Shown: positions 10,915 through 54,295 of the stretch, one piece after another
Layout: the number at the start of each line of letters is the position of its first letter
Position numbering within the stretch: the first letter of the stretch is position 1
Assembly (NCBI RefSeq): GCF_003790525.1
Contig: NZ_CP033635.1
Direction: 5' to 3' (one strand)
DNA from: Escherichia coli
Lineage (GTDB): Bacteria > Pseudomonadota > Gammaproteobacteria > Enterobacterales > Enterobacteriaceae
Length of the DNA stretch: 64,000 nt
Notes under the pieces: model-generated
Told to the model about the DNA's origin: nothing
Seen by the model: the letters and a program-made list of their open reading frames with translations, nothing else
The model's database searches: none
Translations under genes and position numbers: made by a program

Positions 10915-12423
10915 ATGGAATGGCAACAATTGCTTAACTGCAACCGTCGGAAAGATAATCTAAAAAAAACCAGCATAGAATTTTTACATCCCCTTGCTAG
11001 CGGAAGACAAGAGATCGAGCGGGATTACGACCGATTACTTTTTGCTGCGCCAACTCGTCGGCTTGCGGATAAAACACAAGTTTTCCCGTTAGATCAAAAT
11101 GACAGTATACGGACGAGGCTGACTCATTCTCACGAAGTAGCAAACTTTGCTCGCGGAATAGGAATGAGACTCGCTTTCGAGATGAAGGAACACATCTTTG
11201 GCGAAATACCCACGGGGATTGTCGTTGAACGCGACGTTCCTGCTCTGTTAGCAGCGATCGGACTGGCACACGATCTCGGTAATCCACCATTTGGGCATCA
11301 AGGTGAAGCAGCGATGCGCGCATGGTTTAATAAAAATCTTCCAGGCCTTCTTGATAAAGAAGTAAACAGCGAAATATATAACGACTTTCTGCAATTTGAT
11401 GGAAACTCACAAACCCTACGCCTGGTTACCAAATTACAAATTATTAACGATAACTTTGGTCTGAATCTGACCTATGCCACGCTGGCTGCACTGATCAAAT
11501 ATCCCCGAGCTTCATATTCATCGGACAAACATTGGAAAAAGCACGGTTTTTTCTATTCTGAGCATGAGGTTGTCATGGATGTCTGGCAGCAAACGGGCCT
11601 TGGCGTACCAGGTAATGATGCCGGTTGCCGCCACCCATTTACCTGGATAATGGAAGCTTGCGACGATATTGCCTACTCTGTGCTTGACGCAGAAGATACC
11701 ATCAAGAAAGGATTTGCCTCATACCAGGATTTGCGTGATTTTTTGATGTCACAATCCGAGCCGAACGATGTAATTCAACATGTTATTGAAGCTGTAGAGG
11801 CCAAAAATGACGCCTGGAAAGAGCAAAGAAATGCACTTTCACCGGCGGAAATTAATGAACTCAGTATGCAAATGTTCAGAGTTTATGCCACCAGTGCATT
11901 GATTAATGCCGTAGTAGAAGCCTTTCGCGAACAATTACCCACGCTGATGCAGCGTGACTGCCCGTTCAAAGATTTAATCTCGCAAAGCAAAGGTCACGCT
12001 CTCTGCACTGCCCTGAAAATGTTCGACCGAACACGAGGCTACCTTCATCGTTCAGTCTTGCAACTGGAACTTAGGGGATCTAATTACATTACTAACTTGA
12101 TGGATATGCTCTGGATTGGCATCCATGGACACAAAACAAAGAAACAACGAGACGGAGAACGCGAGTCCGCGTCTGCAGATAACCTTTTTGTTTCTCGTGA
12201 AGAATACCTGTCGGATACTCCCTTTGGTCGCTATGCTTACGGGACAATCTCTGAAAATTATCGCCGTGTGTTTGAAGATCCCGCCAATACACTCCCTGCT
12301 CTTTATAAAGAAGCGCAGTTGCTTACCGACGCAATCTCAGGCATGACGGATAGTTATTTAATGCGCCTTCACGATGAGCTAAAATCACTGTATGAATGTG
12401 GTCTCAAACACCCAACAGCTTGA
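10915..12423 (+). CDS. dGTP triphosphohydrolase (Dgt)-family HD-domain protein, extra paralog in non-native locus
   Basis: 502-aa ORF; motifs RRLADKTQVFPL, RTRLTHSHEV, HDLGNPPFGHQGE, FDGNSQTLRL, WIMEACDDIAYSVLDAEDTI, ISGMTDSYL align with E. coli Dgt by eye; AT-rich; opposite strand to flanking flagellar genes. Confidence 0.8.
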   Translation: MEWQQLLNCNRRKDNLKKTSIEFLHPLASGRQEIERDYDRLLFAAPTRRLADKTQVFPLDQNDSIRTRLTHSHEVANFARGIGMRLAFEMKEHIFGEIPTGIVVERDVPALLAAIGLAHDLGNPPFGHQGEAAMRAWFNKNLPGLLDKEVNSEIYNDFLQFDGNSQTLRLVTKLQIINDNFGLNLTYATLAALIKYPRASYSSDKHWKKHGFFYSEHEVVMDVWQQTGLGVPGNDAGCRHPFTWIMEACDDIAYSVLDAEDTIKKGFASYQDLRDFLMSQSEPNDVIQHVIEAVEAKNDAWKEQRNALSPAEINELSMQMFRVYATSALINAVVEAFREQLPTLMQRDCPFKDLISQSKGHALCTALKMFDRTRGYLHRSVLQLELRGSNYITNLMDMLWIGIHGHKTKKQRDGERESASADNLFVSREEYLSDTPFGRYAYGTISENYRRVFEDPANTLPALYKEAQLLTDAISGMTDSYLMRLHDELKSLYECGLKHPTA

Positions 12424-13144
12424 ACAGCGTATCGCCGATTTTTTTACGCTTAGTGATGAGCATAAGAAAGCCAGAGTATTACTTGATACTCTGGCCTGTT
12501 CCTGTCCGGCCTGGATTTTTGGCGGGATGGTGCGTGACTTAGGCTTGTTTGGCGTCGAGGGATTCTCTTCAGACCTTGATATCGTCATCGGTCGCTCCCG
12601 TGAGGAACTCTTCCGGACATTGGCTGAACTGCCCGTCAAACAACTGCGTTTTAATAAGTTCGGTGGGATCCGTTTTCGTTATCACGACTTCGAATTTGAT
12701 ATCTGGAACCTCAATGAGACATGGGCATTTCGGGAAAAACTTATATTTTGTGAGGATGAATCAAGTCTGTTAAACACTACGCTGATGAGTTGGGATGCCG
12801 TGCTCTATGATCTACGTAGTGAAAAAATTATCAGTAAAGATAATTATTTGACCGACTTAAATCGCAGACATCTTGAACTTGTTCTTCATACTAACCCCAA
12901 TCCAAGCGGTTCGGTAACGAAAATTTTACGCACTATTTTTACTAAGCAGGTAAAGAGTTTAGGTCCGGAACTCTGTCATTTCTTGCACCATGAACTGACG
13001 AAAAAACGTTATGAAGTTTGGCATCATTACGATGTACTGCACTACCAGTCATCGTCATTTTCTCGTTCACAATTTAATGCGTTGATAAATTTACTGGCGC
13101 AACAATCACGCTTCGCTGATCTAAAATTATCAAATTACAAATAA
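12392..13144 (+). CDS. Pol-beta superfamily nucleotidyltransferase, CCA-adding/poly(A) polymerase head-like
   Basis: 250-aa ORF with IFGGMVRDLGLFGVEGFSSDLDIVI, matching the GGxVRD...DxD head motif of class II tRNA nucleotidyltransferases; overlaps preceding gene by 32 nt; very AT-rich. Confidence 0.55.
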   Translation: MNVVSNTQQLEQRIADFFTLSDEHKKARVLLDTLACSCPAWIFGGMVRDLGLFGVEGFSSDLDIVIGRSREELFRTLAELPVKQLRFNKFGGIRFRYHDFEFDIWNLNETWAFREKLIFCEDESSLLNTTLMSWDAVLYDLRSEKIISKDNYLTDLNRRHLELVLHTNPNPSGSVTKILRTIFTKQVKSLGPELCHFLHHELTKKRYEVWHHYDVLHYQSSSFSRSQFNALINLLAQQSRFADLKLSNYK

Positions 13145-19561: not shown

Positions 19562-19588
19562 TTATCGGCAAGGAAGGGGGAAACTTTA
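19562..19588 (-). promoter_or_regulatory. sigma28 (FliA) class-3 promoter of tar-tap-cheRBYZ operon
   Basis: Minus-strand TAAAGTTT-N11-GCCGATAA, perfect consensus. Confidence 0.9.
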
Positions 19589-24104: not shown

Positions 24105-24683
24105 TTAAACAGCCTGTACTCTCTGTTCATCCAGCAGTTGTGGGATAATATCGGCAGGATTCTGGGAAAGTTTACGTCTTTTTACTGCCCGGGATGGCGG
24201 TTGACATAAGCTGCAGGCAAAGCTGCCAACAGGCTGGTGAGCGTGGGTAATAAAATTGCCGCCGCAGCAGTTGCAGCTGGAAAGTTGCAGTAATCCACTT
24301 TCAACAAACCGCACCAATGTCCAGGCACGGGTTAATGCCAGCAGTGGTCCTTCTTCTGCTTGTGGGCACTGTTCAAGGTATAAACGGTAGGCTTTGATCA
24401 CCGCATCGACGCCATTACACAAACCGGTTTTCAGTAAAAACTGCCATGCATTACAGAACATCGAAGCATGAACGTTTTGTTCCCAGGTCATAAACCAGTC
24501 GGTTGAGAATGGCAGCATGCCTTTCGGCGGTGGGCTTCCGCGCAGTTCTTTATAAAGTTTTATCAGGCGTCCGCGACTTAACTGTGTTTCGCTTTCCAGC
24601 ATCTGCAAACGAGCGCCCAGGGTGATCAATTCCATTGCCAGCTGAATATCCCGCGCTTCCTGAACAATGCTTTTTTCACTCAT
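24105..24683 (-). CDS. flhC: flagellar master regulator FlhC
   Basis: 192-aa [30 protein letters not shown]... Confidence 0.97.
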
Positions 24684-43876: not shown

Positions 43877-44541
43877 TTTGGTTCTCTCTCCTGGCGATTA
43901 AGTTGATTCTCAAAATGGTTCTGCAACGTCGATAATACTGTCGCCATGATCCAGTAGATGAGCGAAGCCGCCAGGTACATGGTGAACACCTCCAGCGTGC
44001 GCGAGGTAATCAACTGCGCCTGACGGAACAGCTCCGGCACCTGGATTGTCGCGGCCAGCGACGTATCTTTTACCAGACTGATAAAGCTGTTCGACAGCGG
44101 CGGCAACGCCACCCGCGCCGCCTGTGGCAAAATCGCGCGACGCATAGTCTGCCATGGCGTCATACCAATACTGGCAGCTGCTTCCCACTGACCTTTATCA
44201 ATAGAAGAAATGGCGGCGCGAAGCGTTTCGGCGGCATAGGCGGCAGTGTTCAGCGACAGACCAATCATTGCTGACGGAATGGGATCTAATTCGATACCAA
44301 ACTGCGGCAGGCCGTAATAGATCATAAACAGTTGTGCGATGAGCGGCGTACCACGAAAAATAGAGATATAAAAACGCGCCAGCCAGCGCACGGGCCAGAT
44401 CGGCGACAGGCGCATCAGCGCGAGAATAAACCCGAGCAGTAAGCCAAAAAACATGCCGCCGATACTGAGTTGCAGCGTATACCCAGCCCCTTTCAGCAGG
44501 AACGGCAAGGAATCAATAACCAGTTGTATACTTTCTTGCAT
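43873..44541 (-). CDS. tcyL: L-cystine ABC transporter permease TcyL (YecS)
   Basis: 222-aa ORF MQESIQLVIDSLPFLLKGAGYTLQLSIGGMFFG... Confidence 0.95.
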   Translation of the reverse strand: MQESIQLVIDSLPFLLKGAGYTLQLSIGGMFFGLLLGFILALMRLSPIWPVRWLARFYISIFRGTPLIAQLFMIYYGLPQFGIELDPIPSAMIGLSLNTAAYAAETLRAAISSIDKGQWEAAASIGMTPWQTMRRAILPQAARVALPPLSNSFISLVKDTSLAATIQVPELFRQAQLITSRTLEVFTMYLAASLIYWIMATVLSTLQNHFENQLNRQEREPK

Positions 44542-44555
44542 GAGCGTTTCCGGAG

Positions 44556-46447
<1,892 letters not shown>

Positions 46448-46534
46448 ATTCACCCCGAATGTTGTTATGTCTGTTTGCAGTGTAGAGCCATTGTTTGTAA
46501 ACACAAAAACAACTCCGCTACATCTTATTCTTAT

Positions 46535-47086
46535 TTAATATATATCAGAAGCAGGCAGGCTGGAGGATTTCTGCACAAGTCCGGTACACGTTTGACGCTG
46601 ATAGTGTTGATACTTCCGTAATGCGATGCGGTAATTGTTGGTGCTGGTGGTGGGCAGCCACGGAGCGAGGATTTCATCAAGGAAACCGTCCTGCAGCTGA
46701 TCGAGGGAAATATTTTGCTCATGTAGATGATTCCCCAAACGGCGCAAACGAACGACATATTCACGCACCGTACCTGGGCTCATTTCAGTTTGCTCAAAAA
46801 GAAATTGCTTAAAGCCGATAATATCGAAAAAATCACTCTGCGTTTTGCAGTGTAAATCACCGCAAAATCGGCACAATGCCGCCCATGATTGTTGTTCCAC
46901 TTGCCAGCCATTTTCATCAAGCAGCGTGTCCAGGCGGGAAATCTCGATTTTATTCACTATTTTGCCGTCGCGAACTAAGGTAATGCGATCGAGTAATTTA
47001 CGGCAATGCGCGCAATGGGTCTGGCTGTGTTTAAAGTCTTTAAGATAGCGGCTTAATGGCCGTCTTTTCAGGTGCTGCACCATCAT
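46535..47086 (-). CDS. fliZ: flagellar regulator FliZ
   Basis: ORF MMVQHLKRRPLSRYLKDFKHSQTHCAHCRKLLDR... (183 aa). Confidence 0.95.
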   Translation of the reverse strand: MMVQHLKRRPLSRYLKDFKHSQTHCAHCRKLLDRITLVRDGKIVNKIEISRLDTLLDENGWQVEQQSWAALCRFCGDLHCKTQSDFFDIIGFKQFLFEQTEMSPGTVREYVVRLRRLGNHLHEQNISLDQLQDGFLDEILAPWLPTTSTNNYRIALRKYQHYQRQTCTGLVQKSSSLPASDIY

Positions 47087-47131
47087 TAAGAACTCCTGGT
47101 AGTCAAAGTTAAAGTGCGGCATTTACTGACG

Positions 47132-47851
47132 TTATAACTTCCCCAGTTTAGTGCGTAACCGTTTAATAGCCTGGCTGTGTAACTGACTGACCCGCGATTC
47201 CCCGACCTCCAGCACTGCACCAATCTCTTTGAGATTCAGCTCTTCCTGGTAATAGAGGGTTAATACCAGTTTTTCGCGCTCCGGCAACGTTTCGATGGCT
47301 TCCATCACCCGCTGGCGCAGATTACTGTCCAGCAGTTGTTGTAGCGGGTTTTCTCGCTGATGATCATCAGTAACCAGTTCGATGCTATCGCCGTGCTCTT
47401 CGCGCCACTCATCGTAGGAGAAGAGCTGGCTGTTATTGGTGTCGAGCAACATTTGGCGATAATCGGCAATATCGATCCCTAAACGTTCCGCTACCTCAGT
47501 TTCCGTGGCGTTGCGGCCAAGTTCCTGCTCCAGTTGCCCTATTGCCTGTGCCACTTCACGCGCGTTGCGTCGCACGCTGCGCGGCACCCAGTCACGGCTG
47601 CGAAGTTCATCCAGCATAGCGCCACGGATACGCTGCACTGCGTAAGTTGTAAATGCCGTTCCTTGTAGGGCGTCATAGCGTTCGACGGCATTAAGTAACC
47701 CAATGCCGCCCGCCTGTAGCAGATCGTCAAGTTCCACGCTCGCGGGCAGTCGAACCTGCAGGCGCAATGCTTCGTGACGCACCAGCGGGACATAACGCTG
47801 CCACAGCGAGTGTTTATCCATTACACCTTCAGCGGTATAGAGTGAATTCAC
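47132..47851 (-). CDS. fliA: flagellar sigma factor sigma28 FliA
   Basis: 239-aa ORF MNSLYTAEGVMDKHSLWQRYVPLVRHEALRLQ... Confidence 0.97.
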   Translation of the reverse strand: MNSLYTAEGVMDKHSLWQRYVPLVRHEALRLQVRLPASVELDDLLQAGGIGLLNAVERYDALQGTAFTTYAVQRIRGAMLDELRSRDWVPRSVRRNAREVAQAIGQLEQELGRNATETEVAERLGIDIADYRQMLLDTNNSQLFSYDEWREEHGDSIELVTDDHQRENPLQQLLDSNLRQRVMEAIETLPEREKLVLTLYYQEELNLKEIGAVLEVGESRVSQLHSQAIKRLRTKLGKL

Positions 47852-47973
47852 GATAAACAGCCCTGCGTTATATGAGTTATCGGCATGATTATCCGTTTCT
47901 GCAGGGTTTTTAATCGGACGATTAGTGGGTGAAATGAGGGGTTATTTGAGGTTTACCGGTAAATTCCAGGCAG
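47852..47973 (-). promoter_or_regulatory. fliAZ promoter region (class-2 plus sigma28 autoregulation); GCCGATAA -10-like element at 47877-47884
   Basis: Minus-strand GCCGATAA upstream of fliA start; exact -35 not resolved by eye. Confidence 0.45.
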
Positions 47974-47997
47974 AAAAAACCCCGCCGGTGGCGGGGA
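47974..47997 (-). terminator. intrinsic terminator of fliC
   Basis: Hairpin ccccgcc/ggcgggg followed on minus strand by T6. Confidence 0.7.
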
Positions 47998-48028
47998 TGT
48001 ACGTTGCTGACAAATTACGCTTCATGTT

Positions 48029-48128
<100 letters not shown>

Positions 48129-48170
48129 ATTTGGCGTTGCCGTCAGTCTCAGTTAATCAGGTTACGACGA

Positions 48171-49808
48171 TTAACCCTGCAGCAGAGACAGAACCTGCTG
48201 TGGTACCTGGTTAGCTTTTGCCAGCACGGAGTTACCGGCCTGCTGGATGATCTGCGCTTTCGACATGTTGGACACTTCGGTCGCATAGTCGGCGTCCTGA
48301 ATACGGGACTGCGCTTCGGACAGGTTGGTAGTGGTGTTGTTCAGGTTGGTGACCGCGGAATCCAGACGGTTCTGGATAGCACCCAGGGATGAACGGAATT
48401 TGTCGATGGAGCTGATTGCGTCGTCAAGCGCAGCCAATGGATCGGACGTCTTCGATGTTTTATTCTCTGTGCTGTAGACACCATCAGCGTCTTTATAGAT
48501 TTCTTTGCCTGCGCTATTCGTGACCGTGCCATCGGCTTGCGAGTAGTAGGTTGAAACAGTTTGAGCATCCTGGGTTAAGGCATCCCCCGCCAGGAAACCA
48601 TTTGTAGTATTATTTGCGGCAACAGCATAAGTATTCCCACCGGTGTTGGCGGAATATGCAATGCCCGTAAATGCAGATGCTGAAACAGTAGCACCTTCAA
48701 TTTTTACAGTACCTGTATTACCTTCAGCTGTAACTGTTACACCAGCCTCTGTCTTGATGGTTGTTTTAACAGCAGTACCTTTCGCATCCGTATTTCCGAG
48801 AAGCCCAGAAACGGTTGCTTTGTTCGGGTTGCCGGCCTGGTTTTTAGTCAGGTTACCTGTTGAATCCAGATAAAGTTGATCGCCATCACTTGAAGTAATA
48901 TTGCCCGAATCATCAATATTTACATTCTGTGCTGTCCCACCAATAGTAACTGATGCAGCTGTCGTTTTCCCTGCTGCAGGTATGAGATTTGCTGCAGCAT
49001 TCGTTTGGTTTACACCGTCAGCCGTATAGGAGAAGGTATTGCTGGTTGCATTATAAGTATAAGTTGTCGATGTCGCATTATCAGCAAGGCTATTTGCACC
49101 TGTTGCGGTAATTTTATCGCCAGTCTTAAGCGCCGCAAGAATATCAGATCCTTTTGCTGCAGTATTTGCTGTAGTTTTAGTATATGCAGTGCTGCCGTCA
49201 GATGAAGTTAACCCTTTGATATATCCGTCTTTAACCATTCCGTCAGCTGTCGCCGCGACACTTGCCTTATCTGCGCTACCATTCACATTAAACCCACTCA
49301 GCCCCAGCGTATCAGAGTCAATTTTCTTCAGATCAATAGTGATAGTCTGGCCGTCATTCGCACCAACCTGAATTTTCATTGAACCGTCTTTCGCCAGTAC
49401 GTTCACGCCGTTGAACTGGGTCTGGCCAGATACGCGGTCAATTTCGTCCAGACGGGATTTGATTTCGTCCTGAATGGAGTCCAGATCCGAATCGGAGTTA
49501 GTCCCGGTAGAAGCCTGAACCGTCAGTTCACGGATACGCTGTAAGTTGTTGTTGATTTCGGACAGCGCGCCTTCAGTGGTCTGCGCAACGGAGATACCGT
49601 CGTTGGCGTTACGGGCCGCCTGAGTCAGGCCTTTAATGTTAGAAGTAAAACGGTTAGCAATCGCCTGACCCGCTGCGTCATCCTTCGCGCTGTTAATACG
49701 CAAGCCAGAAGACAGACGCTCGATAGAACTCGACAGCGCAGACTGGTTCTTGTTGATATTATTTTGAGTGATCAGCGAGAGGCTGTTGGTATTAATGACT
49801 TGTGCCAT
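48171..49808 (-). CDS. fliC: flagellin FliC, 545-aa non-K-12 H-antigen variant
   Basis: Conserved N-terminus [54 protein letters not shown] and C-terminus ...[12 protein letters not shown] flanking a T/S/N/G-rich variable central region. Confidence 0.96.
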
Positions 49809-49884
49809 GATTCGTTATCCTATATTGCAAGTCGTTGATTACGTTTTGGGTTTCCACCCGTCGGCTCAATCGCCGTCAACCCTG

Positions 49885-49911
49885 TTATCGTCTGTCGTAA
49901 AACAACCTTTA
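49885..49911 (-). promoter_or_regulatory. sigma28 promoter of fliC
   Basis: Minus-strand TAAAGGTT-N11-GACGATAA. Confidence 0.85.
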
Positions 49912-50003
49912 GAATTTTTTTCACAAACAGCCATTTTTTGTTAGTCGACGAAATACTCTTTTCTCTGCCCCTTATTCCCGCTATTAAAAAAAACAATTAA
50001 ACG

Positions 50004-50030
50004 TAAACTTTGCGCAATTCAGGCCGATAA
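50004..50030 (+). promoter_or_regulatory. sigma28 promoter of fliDST
   Basis: Plus-strand TAAACTTT-N11-GCCGATAA. Confidence 0.85.
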
Positions 50031-50073
50031 CCCCGGTATTCGTTTTACGTGTCGAAAGATAAAAGGAAATCGC

Positions 50074-51480
50074 ATGGCAAGTATTTCATCGCTGGGAGTC
50101 GGGTCAGGTCTGGATTTAAGTTCAATCCTTGATAGCCTCACCGCCGCGCAAAAAGCGACGCTAACCCCTATTTCAAATCAGCAATCGTCGTTTACCGCTA
50201 AACTTAGCGCCTACGGTACGCTGAAAAGCGCGCTGACGACTTTCCAGACCGCCAATACTGCATTGTCTAAAGCCGATCTTTTTTCCGCCACCAGCACTAC
50301 CAGCAGCACCACCGCGTTCAGTGCCACCACCGCGGGTAACGCCATCGCCGGGAAATACACCATCAGTGTCACCCATCTGGCGCAGGCGCAAACCCTGACC
50401 ACGCGCACCACCAGAGACGATACGAAAACGGCGATCGCCACCAGCGACAGTAAACTCACCATTCAACAAGGCGGCGACAAAGATCCGATTACCATTGATA
50501 TCAGCGCGGCTAACTCGTCGTTAAGCGGGATCCGTGATGCCATCAACAATGCAAAAGCAGGCGTAAGCGCAAGCATCATTAACGTGGGTAACGGTGAATA
50601 TCGTCTGTCAGTCACATCAAATGACACCGGCCTTGATAATGCGATGACACTCTCGGTCAGCGGTGATGATGCGCTACAAAGTTTTATGGGCTATGACGCC
50701 AGTGCCAGCAGCAACGGTATGGAAGTCTCGGTCGCCGCCCAGAATGCGCAGCTGACGGTCAACAACGTCGCCATTGAGAACAGCAGCAACACCATCAGCG
50801 ACGCGCTGGAAAACATCACCCTGAACCTGAACGATGTCACCACGGGCAACCAGACGCTAACCATCACTCAGGACACCTCCAAAGCGCAAACAGCGATTAA
50901 AGACTGGGTGAATGCCTATAACTCGCTAATAGATACCTTCAGCAGCCTGACCAAATACACCGCCGTAGATGCGGGAGCTGATAGCCAGAGTTCTAGCAAT
51001 GGCGCACTGCTCGGCGACTCCACGTTGCGGACGATTCAGACGCAGTTGAAGTCGATGCTGAGTAATACCGTCAGTTCTTCCAACTATAAAACGCTGGCGC
51101 AGATTGGTATCACGACCGATCCCAGCGATGGCAAACTGGAACTGGATGCCGACAAACTCACCGCTGCACTGAAAAAAGATGCCAGCGGCGTAGGTGCATT
51201 GATTGTTGGCGATGGTAAAAAAACCGGCATCACGACCACCATCGGCAGCAACCTGACCAGTTGGCTTTCGACAACGGGCATTATTAAAGCCGCTACCGAT
51301 GGCGTTAGTAAGACCCTGAATAAATTAACTAAAGACTACAACGCCGCCAGCGATCGCATTGATGCGCAGGTCGCGCGCTATAAAGAACAATTTACCCAAC
51401 TGGACGTTTTAATGACCTCGTTAAACAGCACCAGCAGCTACTTAACGCAGCAGTTCGAAAACAACAGTAATTCCAAGTAA
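50074..51480 (+). CDS. fliD: flagellar filament cap protein FliD
   Basis: 468-aa ORF MASISSLGVGSGLDLSSILDSLTAAQKATL... Confidence 0.96.
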   Translation: MASISSLGVGSGLDLSSILDSLTAAQKATLTPISNQQSSFTAKLSAYGTLKSALTTFQTANTALSKADLFSATSTTSSTTAFSATTAGNAIAGKYTISVTHLAQAQTLTTRTTRDDTKTAIATSDSKLTIQQGGDKDPITIDISAANSSLSGIRDAINNAKAGVSASIINVGNGEYRLSVTSNDTGLDNAMTLSVSGDDALQSFMGYDASASSNGMEVSVAAQNAQLTVNNVAIENSSNTISDALENITLNLNDVTTGNQTLTITQDTSKAQTAIKDWVNAYNSLIDTFSSLTKYTAVDAGADSQSSSNGALLGDSTLRTIQTQLKSMLSNTVSSSNYKTLAQIGITTDPSDGKLELDADKLTAALKKDASGVGALIVGDGKKTGITTTIGSNLTSWLSTTGIIKAATDGVSKTLNKLTKDYNAASDRIDAQVARYKEQFTQLDVLMTSLNSTSSYLTQQFENNSNSK

Positions 51481-51504
51481 TCAATATTCATCGGGAGACA
51501 GGTC

Positions 51505-51915
51505 ATGTACGCGGCAAAAGGCACCCAGGCCTATGCACAAATTGGCGTCGAAAGCGCCGTAATGAGCGCCAGCCAGCAGCAGCTGGTCACCATGCTATTT
51601 GATGGAGTGCTAAGCGCACTGGTTAGAGCGCGCCTGTTTATGCAGGACAACAATCAGCAAGGCAAAGGCGTCTCTTTGTCAAAAGCGATCAACATCATTG
51701 AGAACGGACTGCGGGTGAGTCTTGATGAAGAGAGCAAAGACGAATTAACCCAAAACTTGATTGCTCTTTATAGCTATATGGTCAGGCGTTTGCTGCAAGC
51801 CAATTTACGCAACGATGTCTCCGCAGTCGAAGAAGTGGAAACATTAATGCGCAATATTGCCGATGCCTGGAAAGAGTCGTTACTCTCCCCTTCTTTGATT
51901 CAGGACCCAGTCTGA
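51505..51915 (+). CDS. fliS: flagellin export chaperone FliS
   Basis: 136-aa [37 protein letters not shown]... Confidence 0.96.
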
Positions 51916-52280
51916 TGAACCATGCACCGCATTTGTATTTCGCCTGGCAACAACTCGTCGAAAAAAGCCAGCTCATGTTACGCCTGGCAACGGAAGAACA
52001 ATGGGACGAACTCATCGCCAGCGAAATGGCGTATGTTAATGCGGTGCAGGAGATTGCACATTTGACTGAAGAGATTGACCCGTCCACCACGATGCAGGAG
52101 CAGCTCCGCCCGATGCTGCGCCTGATTCTCGACAACGAAAGCAAGGTAAAGCAGTTATTACAGATTCGGATGGATGAACTGGCGAAACTGGTCGGTCAGT
52201 CATCGGTGCAAAAATCGGTGTTAAGTGCCTATGGCGATCAGGGCGGCTTTGTGCTGGCTCCGCAAGATAACTTATCGTGA
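51915..52280 (+). CDS. fliT: FliD chaperone / anti-FlhDC factor FliT
   Basis: 121-aa [36 protein letters not shown]... Confidence 0.95.
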
Positions 52281-52357
52281 ATCTTAACGAGCTAATGGCT
52301 CGCGAATAATCCGATTACGGCTACGCTTCAAATGTTCCCCTTGAATGGAGTCGAAGA

Positions 52358-53845
52358 ATGCGTAATCCCACGCTGTTACAATGTTTTCACTGGTATTACC
52401 CGGAAGGCGGTAAGCTCTGGCCTGAACTGGCCGAGCGCGCCGACGGTTTTAATGATATTGGTATCAATATGGTCTGGTTGCCGCCCGCCTATAAAGGCGC
52501 ATCGGGCGGGTATTCGGTCGGCTACGACTCCTATGATTTATTTGATTTAGGCGAGTTTGATCAGAAAGGCAGCATCCCTACTAAATATGGCGATAAAGCA
52601 CAACTGCTGGCCGCCATTGACGCCCTGAAACGTAATGACATTGCGGTGCTGTTGGACGTGGTAGTCAACCACAAAATGGGCGCGGATGAAAAAGAAGCTA
52701 TTCGCGTGCAGCGTGTAAATGCTGACGACCGTACGCAAATTGATGAAGAAATCATTGAGTGCGAAGGCTGGACGCGTTACACCTTCCCCGCCCGTGCCGG
52801 GCAATACTCACAGTTTATCTGGGATTTCAAATGTTTTAGCGGTATCGACCATATCGAAAACCCTGATGAAGATGGCATATTTAAAATTGTTAACGACTAC
52901 ACCGGCGAAGGCTGGAACGATCAGGTTGATGATGAATTAGGTAATTTCGATTATCTGATGGGCGAGAATATCGATTTTCGCAATCATGCCGTGACGGAAG
53001 AGATTAAATACTGGGCGCGCTGGGTGATGGAACAAACGCAATGCGACGGTTTTCGTCTTGATGCGGTCAAACATATTCCGGCGTGGTTTTATAAAGAGTG
53101 GATCGAACACGTACAGGAAGTTGCGCCAAAGCCGCTGTTTATTGTGGCGGAGTACTGGTCGCATGAAGTTGATAAGCTGCAAACGTATATTGATCAGGTG
53201 GAAGGCAAAACCATGCTGTTCGATGCGCCGCTGCAGATGAAATTCCATGAAGCATCGCGCATGGGACGCGACTACGACATGACGCAGATTTTCACTGGGA
53301 CGCTGGTGGAAGCCGATCCTTTTCACGCCGTAACCCTCGTTGCCAACCATGACACCCAACCGTTGCAAGCCCTCGAAGCGCCAGTCGAACCGTGGTTTAA
53401 ACCGCTGGCGTATGCTCTAATTTTGTTGCGGGAAAATGGCGTTCCTTCGGTATTCTATCCGGACCTCTACGGTGCGCATTACGAAGATGTCGGTGGTGAC
53501 GGGCAAACCTATCCGATAGATATGCCAATAATCGAACAGCTTGATGAGTTAATTCTCGCCCGTCAGCGTTTCGCCCACGGTGTACAGACGTTATTTTTCG
53601 ACCATCCGAACTGCATTGCCTTTAGCCGCAGTGGCACTGACGAATATCCCGGCTGCGTGGTGGTCATGTCGAACGGGGATGATGGCGAAAAAACCATTCA
53701 CCTGGGAGAGAATTACGGCAATAAAACCTGGCGTGATTTTCTTGGGAACCGGCAAGAGAGTGTAGTAACCGACGAAAACGGCGAAGCGACCTTCTTTTGC
53801 AACGGCGGCAGCGTTAGCGTGTGGGTTATCGAAGAGGTGATTTAA
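52358..53845 (+). CDS. amyA: cytoplasmic alpha-amylase
   Basis: 495-aa [50 protein letters not shown]... (GH13). Confidence 0.96.
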
Positions 53846-53878
53846 ATTCATCCCCGGCGGCAAGCCGGGGAGATTTCA

Positions 53879-54295
53879 TTACGGCAATGGCGTCGGTAAC
53901 GGCGCTTTATCCAGCGCAGCGGCACACTCTGCCGTCGGGCGATCCACACGCTCCATCGTCATACCATCGTACTCAATGGTGTTACCGTCACGCTCAACCT
54001 CGTACAGCTCACGTTTTACGGTAACGTTAGTGAGATCATCAGACATCAATGTCAACTTGCCCGGCACAGCAATCACCCGCTGCCACTGACGGCAATCCAG
54101 AGTATCGCCCTCTTTAATGACAATCAGGCTGCCTATCGCTTCCGGACTGACCAGCGCACGTTGCGGCCCTTTGGTCTGCCAGTAGCCCGCCAGCCAGTCC
54201 GGCGCGGGGGTTTTCACGACATTGTTATAGTTTTCGACTTCGGCACAGCCCGCCAGCAACATGAGCGCGCCTGCAATTGCGAGTTTTTTCATCAT
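53879..54295 (-). CDS. yedD: lipoprotein YedD
   Basis: ORF MKKLAIAGALMLLAGCAEVENYNNVVKTPAPDW... with lipobox. Confidence 0.9.
   Translation of the reverse strand: MMKKLAIAGALMLLAGCAEVENYNNVVKTPAPDWLAGYWQTKGPQRALVSPEAIGSLIVIKEGDTLDCRQWQRVIAVPGKLTLMSDDLTNVTVKRELYEVERDGNTIEYDGMTMERVDRPTAECAAALDKAPLPTPLP

Follow-up and report, generated by a model that had tools for sequence, protein, structure and literature searches.

Which flagellar antigen is specified by the fliC gene of this Escherichia coli segment, and what would its long central region build on the outside of the filament? The window, meaning the whole stretch of 64,000 nucleotides that was analysed (contig NZ_CP033635.1), carries an intact fliC coding sequence on the minus strand, which begins with ATG, is bounded exactly by positions 48171..49808 and encodes 545 aa followed by a stop codon. 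The encoded protein matches Pfam Flagellin_N (PF00669) over residues 5-140 (E 1.4e-46) and Flagellin_C (PF00700) over residues 459-543 (E 1.8e-31), with PF12445 'FliC', the enterobacterial variable-region family, spanning residues 338-451, and its score with the NCBIfam model NF005953 'FliC/FljB family flagellin' is 758.8 bits, the cut-off of the model being 619. With domain and family scores far above chance, it is a member of the FliC/FljB family, and the 545-aa flagellin that the initial annotation placed here is borne out both by the bounds of the open reading frame and by these scores. The gene is flanked by tcyJ(fliY)-fliZ-fliA on one side and by fliD-fliS-fliT-amyA on the other, in the order seen in K-12, being divergent from fliDST, upstream of fliAZ and provided with a sigma-28 promoter (see below). 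This canonical fliC position rules out a second-locus flagellin of the flkA, fllA or flmA type.

Comparison with the FliC protein of K-12 (b1923; 498 aa), the H48 type, divides the gene into three parts. The conserved N-terminal D0/D1 part (codons 1-175; 49284..49808, minus strand), which includes the TLR5-recognised helix region, is 94% identical to K-12 FliC at the amino acid level and the conserved C-terminal D1/D0 part (codons 453-545 plus stop; 48171..48452, minus strand) is 95% identical (BLASTP), whereas for the hypervariable outer-domain region between them, which defines the H34 antigen (codons 176-452; 48453..49283, minus strand), BLASTP yields no alignment to K-12 FliC. At the nucleotide level, identity to K-12 is 92-100% up to gene nt 300, drops as far as 62% at nt 481-537, remains between 23 and 48% per 60-column window until nt 1376 and is back at 95-100% from nt 1437, such that the stretch with less than 65% identity runs from about nt 480 to 1376. 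The intact D0/D1 termini described in the initial annotation are thus confirmed by ends that are 94-95% identical to those of K-12, and the hypervariable region that it placed at roughly residues 180-450 was measured as 176-452.

The same locus, promoter, 3'UTR and terminator are found in K-12 (98-99% identical), and the difference between the two flagellins lies in the centre, that of K-12 being 47 aa shorter and without detectable sequence similarity. The window gene cannot therefore be the K-12 H48 fliC, since the two centres are unalignable, and the identity to K-12 fliC that would have spoken against a different H type is contradicted by the 23-48% nucleotide identity of the centre. The earlier proposals that length and sequence are unlike those of K-12 (545 versus 498 aa), and that the H serotype is other than H48, both hold. 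The description of the centre as T/S/N/G-rich is correct by composition (T 17.3%, G 11.2%, N 9.0%, S 8.7% over residues 176-452) but leaves out alanine, the second commonest residue (16.2%). The sum of T, S, N and G is 46% in both the H34 centre and the K-12 centre, the bias being a general property of flagellin outer domains, and composition is therefore no discriminator between types; length and sequence are. The GC content of the gene is 0.45 in the centre and 0.50 and 0.55 in the two ends.

Three lines of evidence identify the antigen. The whole gene is 100% identical at the nucleotide level to the fliC of strain SMS-3-5, with the same locus, no difference and the AY250016 primer sites present, and to that of about 35 other complete genomes. 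SMS-3-5 has been given as O19:H34 (PMC2806823) and as O19:H34, phylogroup F, ST354 (PMC11537424). AY250016 is the H34 reference sequence, from strain BP 12665 (PMC4753304), on which PCR primers 'targeting the fliC H34 gene' were designed (PMC7238078). The H34-specific reverse primer, within the variable region, matches exactly at 48938..48959 (plus strand; 22/22, with none expected by chance), and the forward primer matches 20 of its 21 positions at 49488..49508 (minus strand), the one mismatch falling at gene nt 315. Chance would be expected to produce neither site, and the pair would give an amplicon of 571 bp on the window fliC. The forward-primer mismatch is specific to the window allele, the match being exact in a 560-aa allele described below and in the 545-aa alleles of strains RM14723 and 2017.17.01CC. 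In a Spanish bacteraemia study, ST354 isolates of phylogroup F were typed O153:H34 and ONT:H34 with a full set of H antisera (PMC6646471). From the identity with the SMS-3-5 gene, the AY250016 primer matches and the antisera typing of ST354, we conclude that the gene is fliC-H34, the link to AY250016 being by way of two primer sites (43 nt) together with the published serotypes of strains with the identical gene. The H34 flagellar antigen and this fliC allele are already known, and in this sense the gene is an ordinary one.

Of 5426 complete E. coli genomes, only 61 gave a match to the central 831 nt in a sensitive blastn search, and in the search with fliC the best match was at least 99% identical in 38 genomes, with at least 80% of the gene covered in 60. 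H34 thus narrows the field to about 1% of genomes and does not by itself identify a lineage. Positions 36000-60000 of the window are 100% identical in SMS-3-5, KFu014, 702/18, XH992, 573, CS5L, GN03139, EC332 and E22, and positions 1-25000 are 100% identical in XDL, LS45, M172-1, 702/18, XH992, GN03139, E22 and others, with SMS-3-5 scoring 5 bits lower over this second segment (about one base different). Across the two segments, 49 kb in all, at least four genomes (702/18, XH992, GN03139 and E22) are equally good matches at 100%. Assignment to a single strain is ruled out by the ties in both large segments; the window belongs to a clonal lineage to which, since many genomes tie at 100%, no one strain name can be attached. 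The initial annotation had called the gene useful for identifying the strain, which holds at the level of serotype and lineage and fails for the single strain.

The cassette also occurs on other chromosomal backgrounds. RM14723 and 2017.17.01CC share 97.8-98.0% identity with the window over the 17 kb that surround fliC, in contrast to 99.8% (RM14723) and 99.2% (2017.17.01CC) over a 500-nt window that opens the fliC centre. The conserved fliC ends of these two strains (L006 and L007) are 96.6-97.8% identical, below this first central 500-nt window, a pattern which suggests that the breakpoints of recombination lie within the conserved parts coding for D0/D1. The H34 allele would then have been acquired by recombination of a central cassette within the conserved fliC ends, cassette recombination being the usual route by which H antigens move between E. 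coli lineages. As the same cassette sits in several chromosomal backgrounds, it is a serotype marker and not a strain marker.

Two alleles of the H34 centre are in circulation. Among the 61 carriers, 43 are at least 99% identical to the window and have the 545-aa form, and 18 are about 93.8% identical, carry 45 additional nt and have a 560-aa form, found at L003 976-2658 and L008 8476-10158 (NCTC11023). The 560-aa allele, as in NCTC11023, is longer by 15 aa, GTHTNTDGVPDSFTD, inserted after residue 365, and carries seven substitutions (N329S, T340M, D341A, K343D, K348E, A410D and Q413L), such that the window allele differs from it in seven residues and in being without the 15-aa loop. The substitutions cluster at residues 329-348 and 410-413. 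By alignment to the NCTC11023 fliC, the 45-nt indel junction lies at 48710..48711 (minus strand), after gene nt 1098 (aa 365/366), and is flanked by microhomology, GGT|ACT ... GGG|ACT. An AlphaFold2 (AF2) model places the indel in the loop that connects the predicted strands 358-361 and 367-376, the stretch with the lowest confidence within the outer region, which fits a tolerated surface-loop polymorphism.

The structural class of the centre was approached through sequence and structure searches. The flagellin of EPEC O127:H6, identified as the protein in PDB entries 7SN7 and 7SQJ (PMC8931119), is the closest solved structure, aligning over the full length at an E value of about 1e-190 with identities of 99.4% (N-terminal part), 42.5% (centre) and 96.8% (C-terminal part). 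The two proteins are alike in their near-identical D0/D1 ends, in a centre that can be aligned end to end and in an identical TGNLTKN motif, and they differ in that the centre, at 42.5% identity with several indels, makes a distinct antigen. The classical EPEC 1 group was defined by these two H types, as the 'H6/H34 strains', H34 being found in the classical typical EPEC serotypes O86:H34 and O142:H34 (PMC2732489). With the centre alone as query against the PDB, H6 was matched at 1.5e-25 over 274 residues and nothing else, H7 included, reached an E value of 0.01 or below, although a 77-residue central segment reached 0.0041 against H7. No H34 flagellin structure was present among the solved structures searched.

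The AF2 model, built from a 25-sequence alignment, has a mean pLDDT of 82, mostly 85-95 across residues 180-450, with helices at 7-100, 106-129, 457-513 and 517-544. Its best Foldseek matches are 7SN4, 9N59, 7SN7 and 7SQD, with E values of 1.5e-43 for EHEC H7, about 1e-43 for Azotobacter vinelandii and EPEC H6, 1.6e-29 for Achromobacter and about 1e-26 for Salmonella FliC. EHEC O157:H7 (7SN4) is thus the best structural match and has N319 and N323 at the same positions, but is longer (585 aa) with only weak similarity in the central sequence. Against the solved sheath flagellins the global TM-scores reach only 0.37-0.47, which fits differences in domain orientation, an attribution that stops short of proof at the level of single domains. 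From the H6 match and the Foldseek results the outer region is homologous to D2-D3-D4 of the solved sheath formers, and we are highly confident that the H34 centre belongs to the H6/H7 class, with three outer domains (D2-D4), and not to the Salmonella/K-12 class.

An exhaustive HMMER search with the centre as query against 1.84 billion cluster representatives returned 36 matches at E values of 1e-3 or below and 16 at 1e-10 or below, a count that understates the diversity of the family, since clustering at 50% whole-protein identity merges many flagellins. Identities were mostly 31-45%, with a few short fragments at 51-94%. All eight of the long matches checked in Pfam carry both Flagellin_N and Flagellin_C, and seven of them PF12445, such that the H34-type outer-domain fold is confined to flagellins as far as these eight long matches go.

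Within the centre, the equivalent of the D4 dimer-interface motif, T-G-N319-L-T-K-N323, is encoded by codons 317-323 (48840..48860, minus strand) and aligns column for column with H7 G318-N319-L-T-T-N323 and H6 TGNLTKN. The wider context is LYLDSTG-N319-LTK-N323-QAG in H34, LYMDATGNLTKNNAG in H6 and AYVDDAG-N319-LTT-N323-NAG in H7. Flagellins of H6, H7 and Achromobacter have three outer domains (D2-D4), which dimerise or tetramerise into an outer-domain sheath (PMC8931119). The H7 sheath needs the conserved D4 dimer interface, with mutation of N319 and N323 disrupting the sheath and impairing motility (PMC8931119). Because the D4 motif with both asparagines is kept, H34 filaments probably carry an outer-domain sheath of the H6/H7 type. 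Homology by itself cannot show sheath formation, and the type of lattice is not predictable from it, since H6 and H7, though homologous, build different lattices; the types seen among H6, H7 and Achromobacter are a dimer, a tetramer and a tetramer with a seam, the last of these in H6 (PMC8931119). The review searched makes no mention of the Lawn/Orskov flagellar morphotype of H34.

The sequences on either side of the gene bear on its expression. The fliC-fliD intergenic region is 99% identical to that of K-12 and contains a predicted sigma-28 (FliA) class 3 promoter for fliC at 49885..49911 (minus strand), TAAAGGTT-N11-GACGATAA, with two mismatches to the consensus, and the sigma-28 site of fliD at 50004..50030 (plus strand), TAAACTTT-N11-GCCGATAA. 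Six sites in the whole window lie within three mismatches of the sigma-28 consensus, against 0.65 expected. The fliC and fliD sites are two of them, and two more are assigned by position upstream of tar (19562-19588, minus strand, a perfect match) and upstream of motA (24148-24174, minus strand). A sigma-70 promoter scan was at the level of chance, with 3 found and 3.1 expected. Downstream, within a region 98% identical to K-12, the fliC 3'UTR at about 47974..48167 (minus strand) is the equivalent of the K-12 small RNA FliX by alignment to the annotated K-12 fliX (L001 6913-7107), and an Rfam scan of 44000-54000 at the gathering threshold gave no match to FliX or any other RNA. A terminator scan placed the intrinsic terminator of fliC at 47980..47996 (minus strand), CCCCGCCACCGGCGGGG followed by a T run, with a stem-loop identical to that of K-12. 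The sigma-28 gene fliA, needed for fliC transcription, is an intact ORF of 239 aa at 47132..47851 (minus strand), annotated fliA in the identical SMS-3-5 sequence, and flhDC, motAB, the che genes and flhBAE are annotated as intact in the matching SMS-3-5 stretch. As far as can be judged from these features, the sequence appears to hold nothing against expression of fliC.

Two further loci of the window differ from K-12. A two-gene insert lies between cheZ and flhB at 10915-13144 (plus strand), an interval that is not known to hold genes in K-12. The first ORF (502 aa, dgt in SMS-3-5) matches the PADLOC anti-phage 'dGTPase' model (E 5.8e-71) and a Pfam HD domain. In searches of Pfam and PADLOC no match was found for the second ORF (250 aa), which overlaps the first. 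The insert may be a small defence island within the flagellar/chemotaxis region. At about 57419-58884, between fliE and yedL, the SMS-3-5 annotation has part of an integrase gene together with an intact gene for a 'T3SS effector leucine-rich repeat protein EspR3', in an interval that in K-12 presumably holds pseudogene remnants only (yedN/intG).

Three other readings of the gene have to be weighed, the one with most substance being that H34 outer domains form no sheath and project independently, as in K-12 and Salmonella, serving as an antigenic surface only. A centre that is only 42.5% identical to H6 and that misses an E value of 0.01 against H7, the variation of lattice type among H6, H7 and Achromobacter and the modest global TM-scores would all be compatible with such a filament, but the D4 dimer motif is kept, including both asparagines on which the H7 sheath depends, the outer region is as long as is usual in flagellins that form sheaths and the best structural matches are sheath-forming flagellins. 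Taken together these points make filaments lacking a sheath unlikely, if still a reading of some weight, and a sheathed H34 filament the probable one. A more elaborate version of the sheathed filament, in which H34 forms its sheath by way of D4 dimers and the 545- and 560-aa alleles are structurally, perhaps antigenically, distinct sub-types with different lattices or motility, is put forward on the basis of the 15-aa surface loop and the nearby cluster of charge-changing substitutions and is speculative, being more doubtful than not.

The remaining two concern the antigen itself. That the intact fliC is not the expressed H antigen, the strain being non-motile or drawing its flagellin from flkA, fllA or flmA, is a reading for which it counts that the visible sequence amounts to 64 kb of the genome, with expression beyond the reach of sequence, and that in another H34 carrier, 2017.17.01CC, fliA contains an internal stop and is annotated as a pseudogene. 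That pseudogene lies at L007 10433-11152, and because of it the H34 fliC of 2017.17.01CC is probably silent; an intact fliC is no guarantee of an expressed H antigen. In the window, by contrast, fliA is intact, the sigma-28 promoter and the flanks match K-12, the flagellar and chemotaxis genes named above are annotated as intact in the matching SMS-3-5 region and isolates of the same lineage react with H34 antiserum, such that silence of this fliC is very unlikely. Smaller still is the probability, close to negligible, that the gene represents a distinct unnamed H type which bears the H34 label only by in-silico transfer from related strains. The comparison with AY250016 is confined to the primer sites, the two alleles are set apart by a 15-aa loop and seven substitutions and a published study found heterogeneous PCR behaviour among H34 strains, all of which would leave room for such a type, and against it stand the full 22/22 match of the AY250016 reverse primer in the variable region, a search at the blastn level in which a related centre was seen in no further group of E. 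coli and the antisera typing of ST354 isolates as H34.

The explanation that best accommodates these observations, and which the sequence makes very probable, is that the gene is fliC, encoding the filament subunit in its H34 form, transcribed by FliA, with a centre of the H6/H7 class and acquired by cassette recombination. FliA (sigma-28) would transcribe the gene from the conserved class 3 promoter, and the flagellin would be exported through the flagellar type III system with FliS as chaperone. In flagellins it is the D0/D1 helices that assemble the core of the filament, interact with FliS and bear the TLR5 epitope. In the H34 flagellin the conserved ends (residues 1-175 and 453-545) accordingly form the D0/D1 coiled-coil core, polymerising into the filament and bearing the TLR5-recognised surface, and the H34 antigen consists of the outer domains into which the central 277 residues fold and which are exposed at the surface. 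On these, D4 dimers (N319 and N323) would probably assemble an outer-domain sheath as in H6 and H7.

For typing, the gene assigns the source genome to H type H34, which aids provenance and in-silico serotyping, and together with its flanks it places the window in an SMS-3-5/ST354-like lineage of phylogroup F. It is also a classic example of how H-antigen cassettes are exchanged between the conserved ends of fliC. What goes beyond routine typing is the placement in a sheath class and the presence of two natural length variants of H34: on the grounds of homology and of the conserved motif, H34 can be assigned to the sheath-forming flagellins of the H6/H7 class, and should the tentative proposal of two sub-types be true, H34 would offer a natural allele pair for testing the effect of an outer-domain loop on sheath packing.
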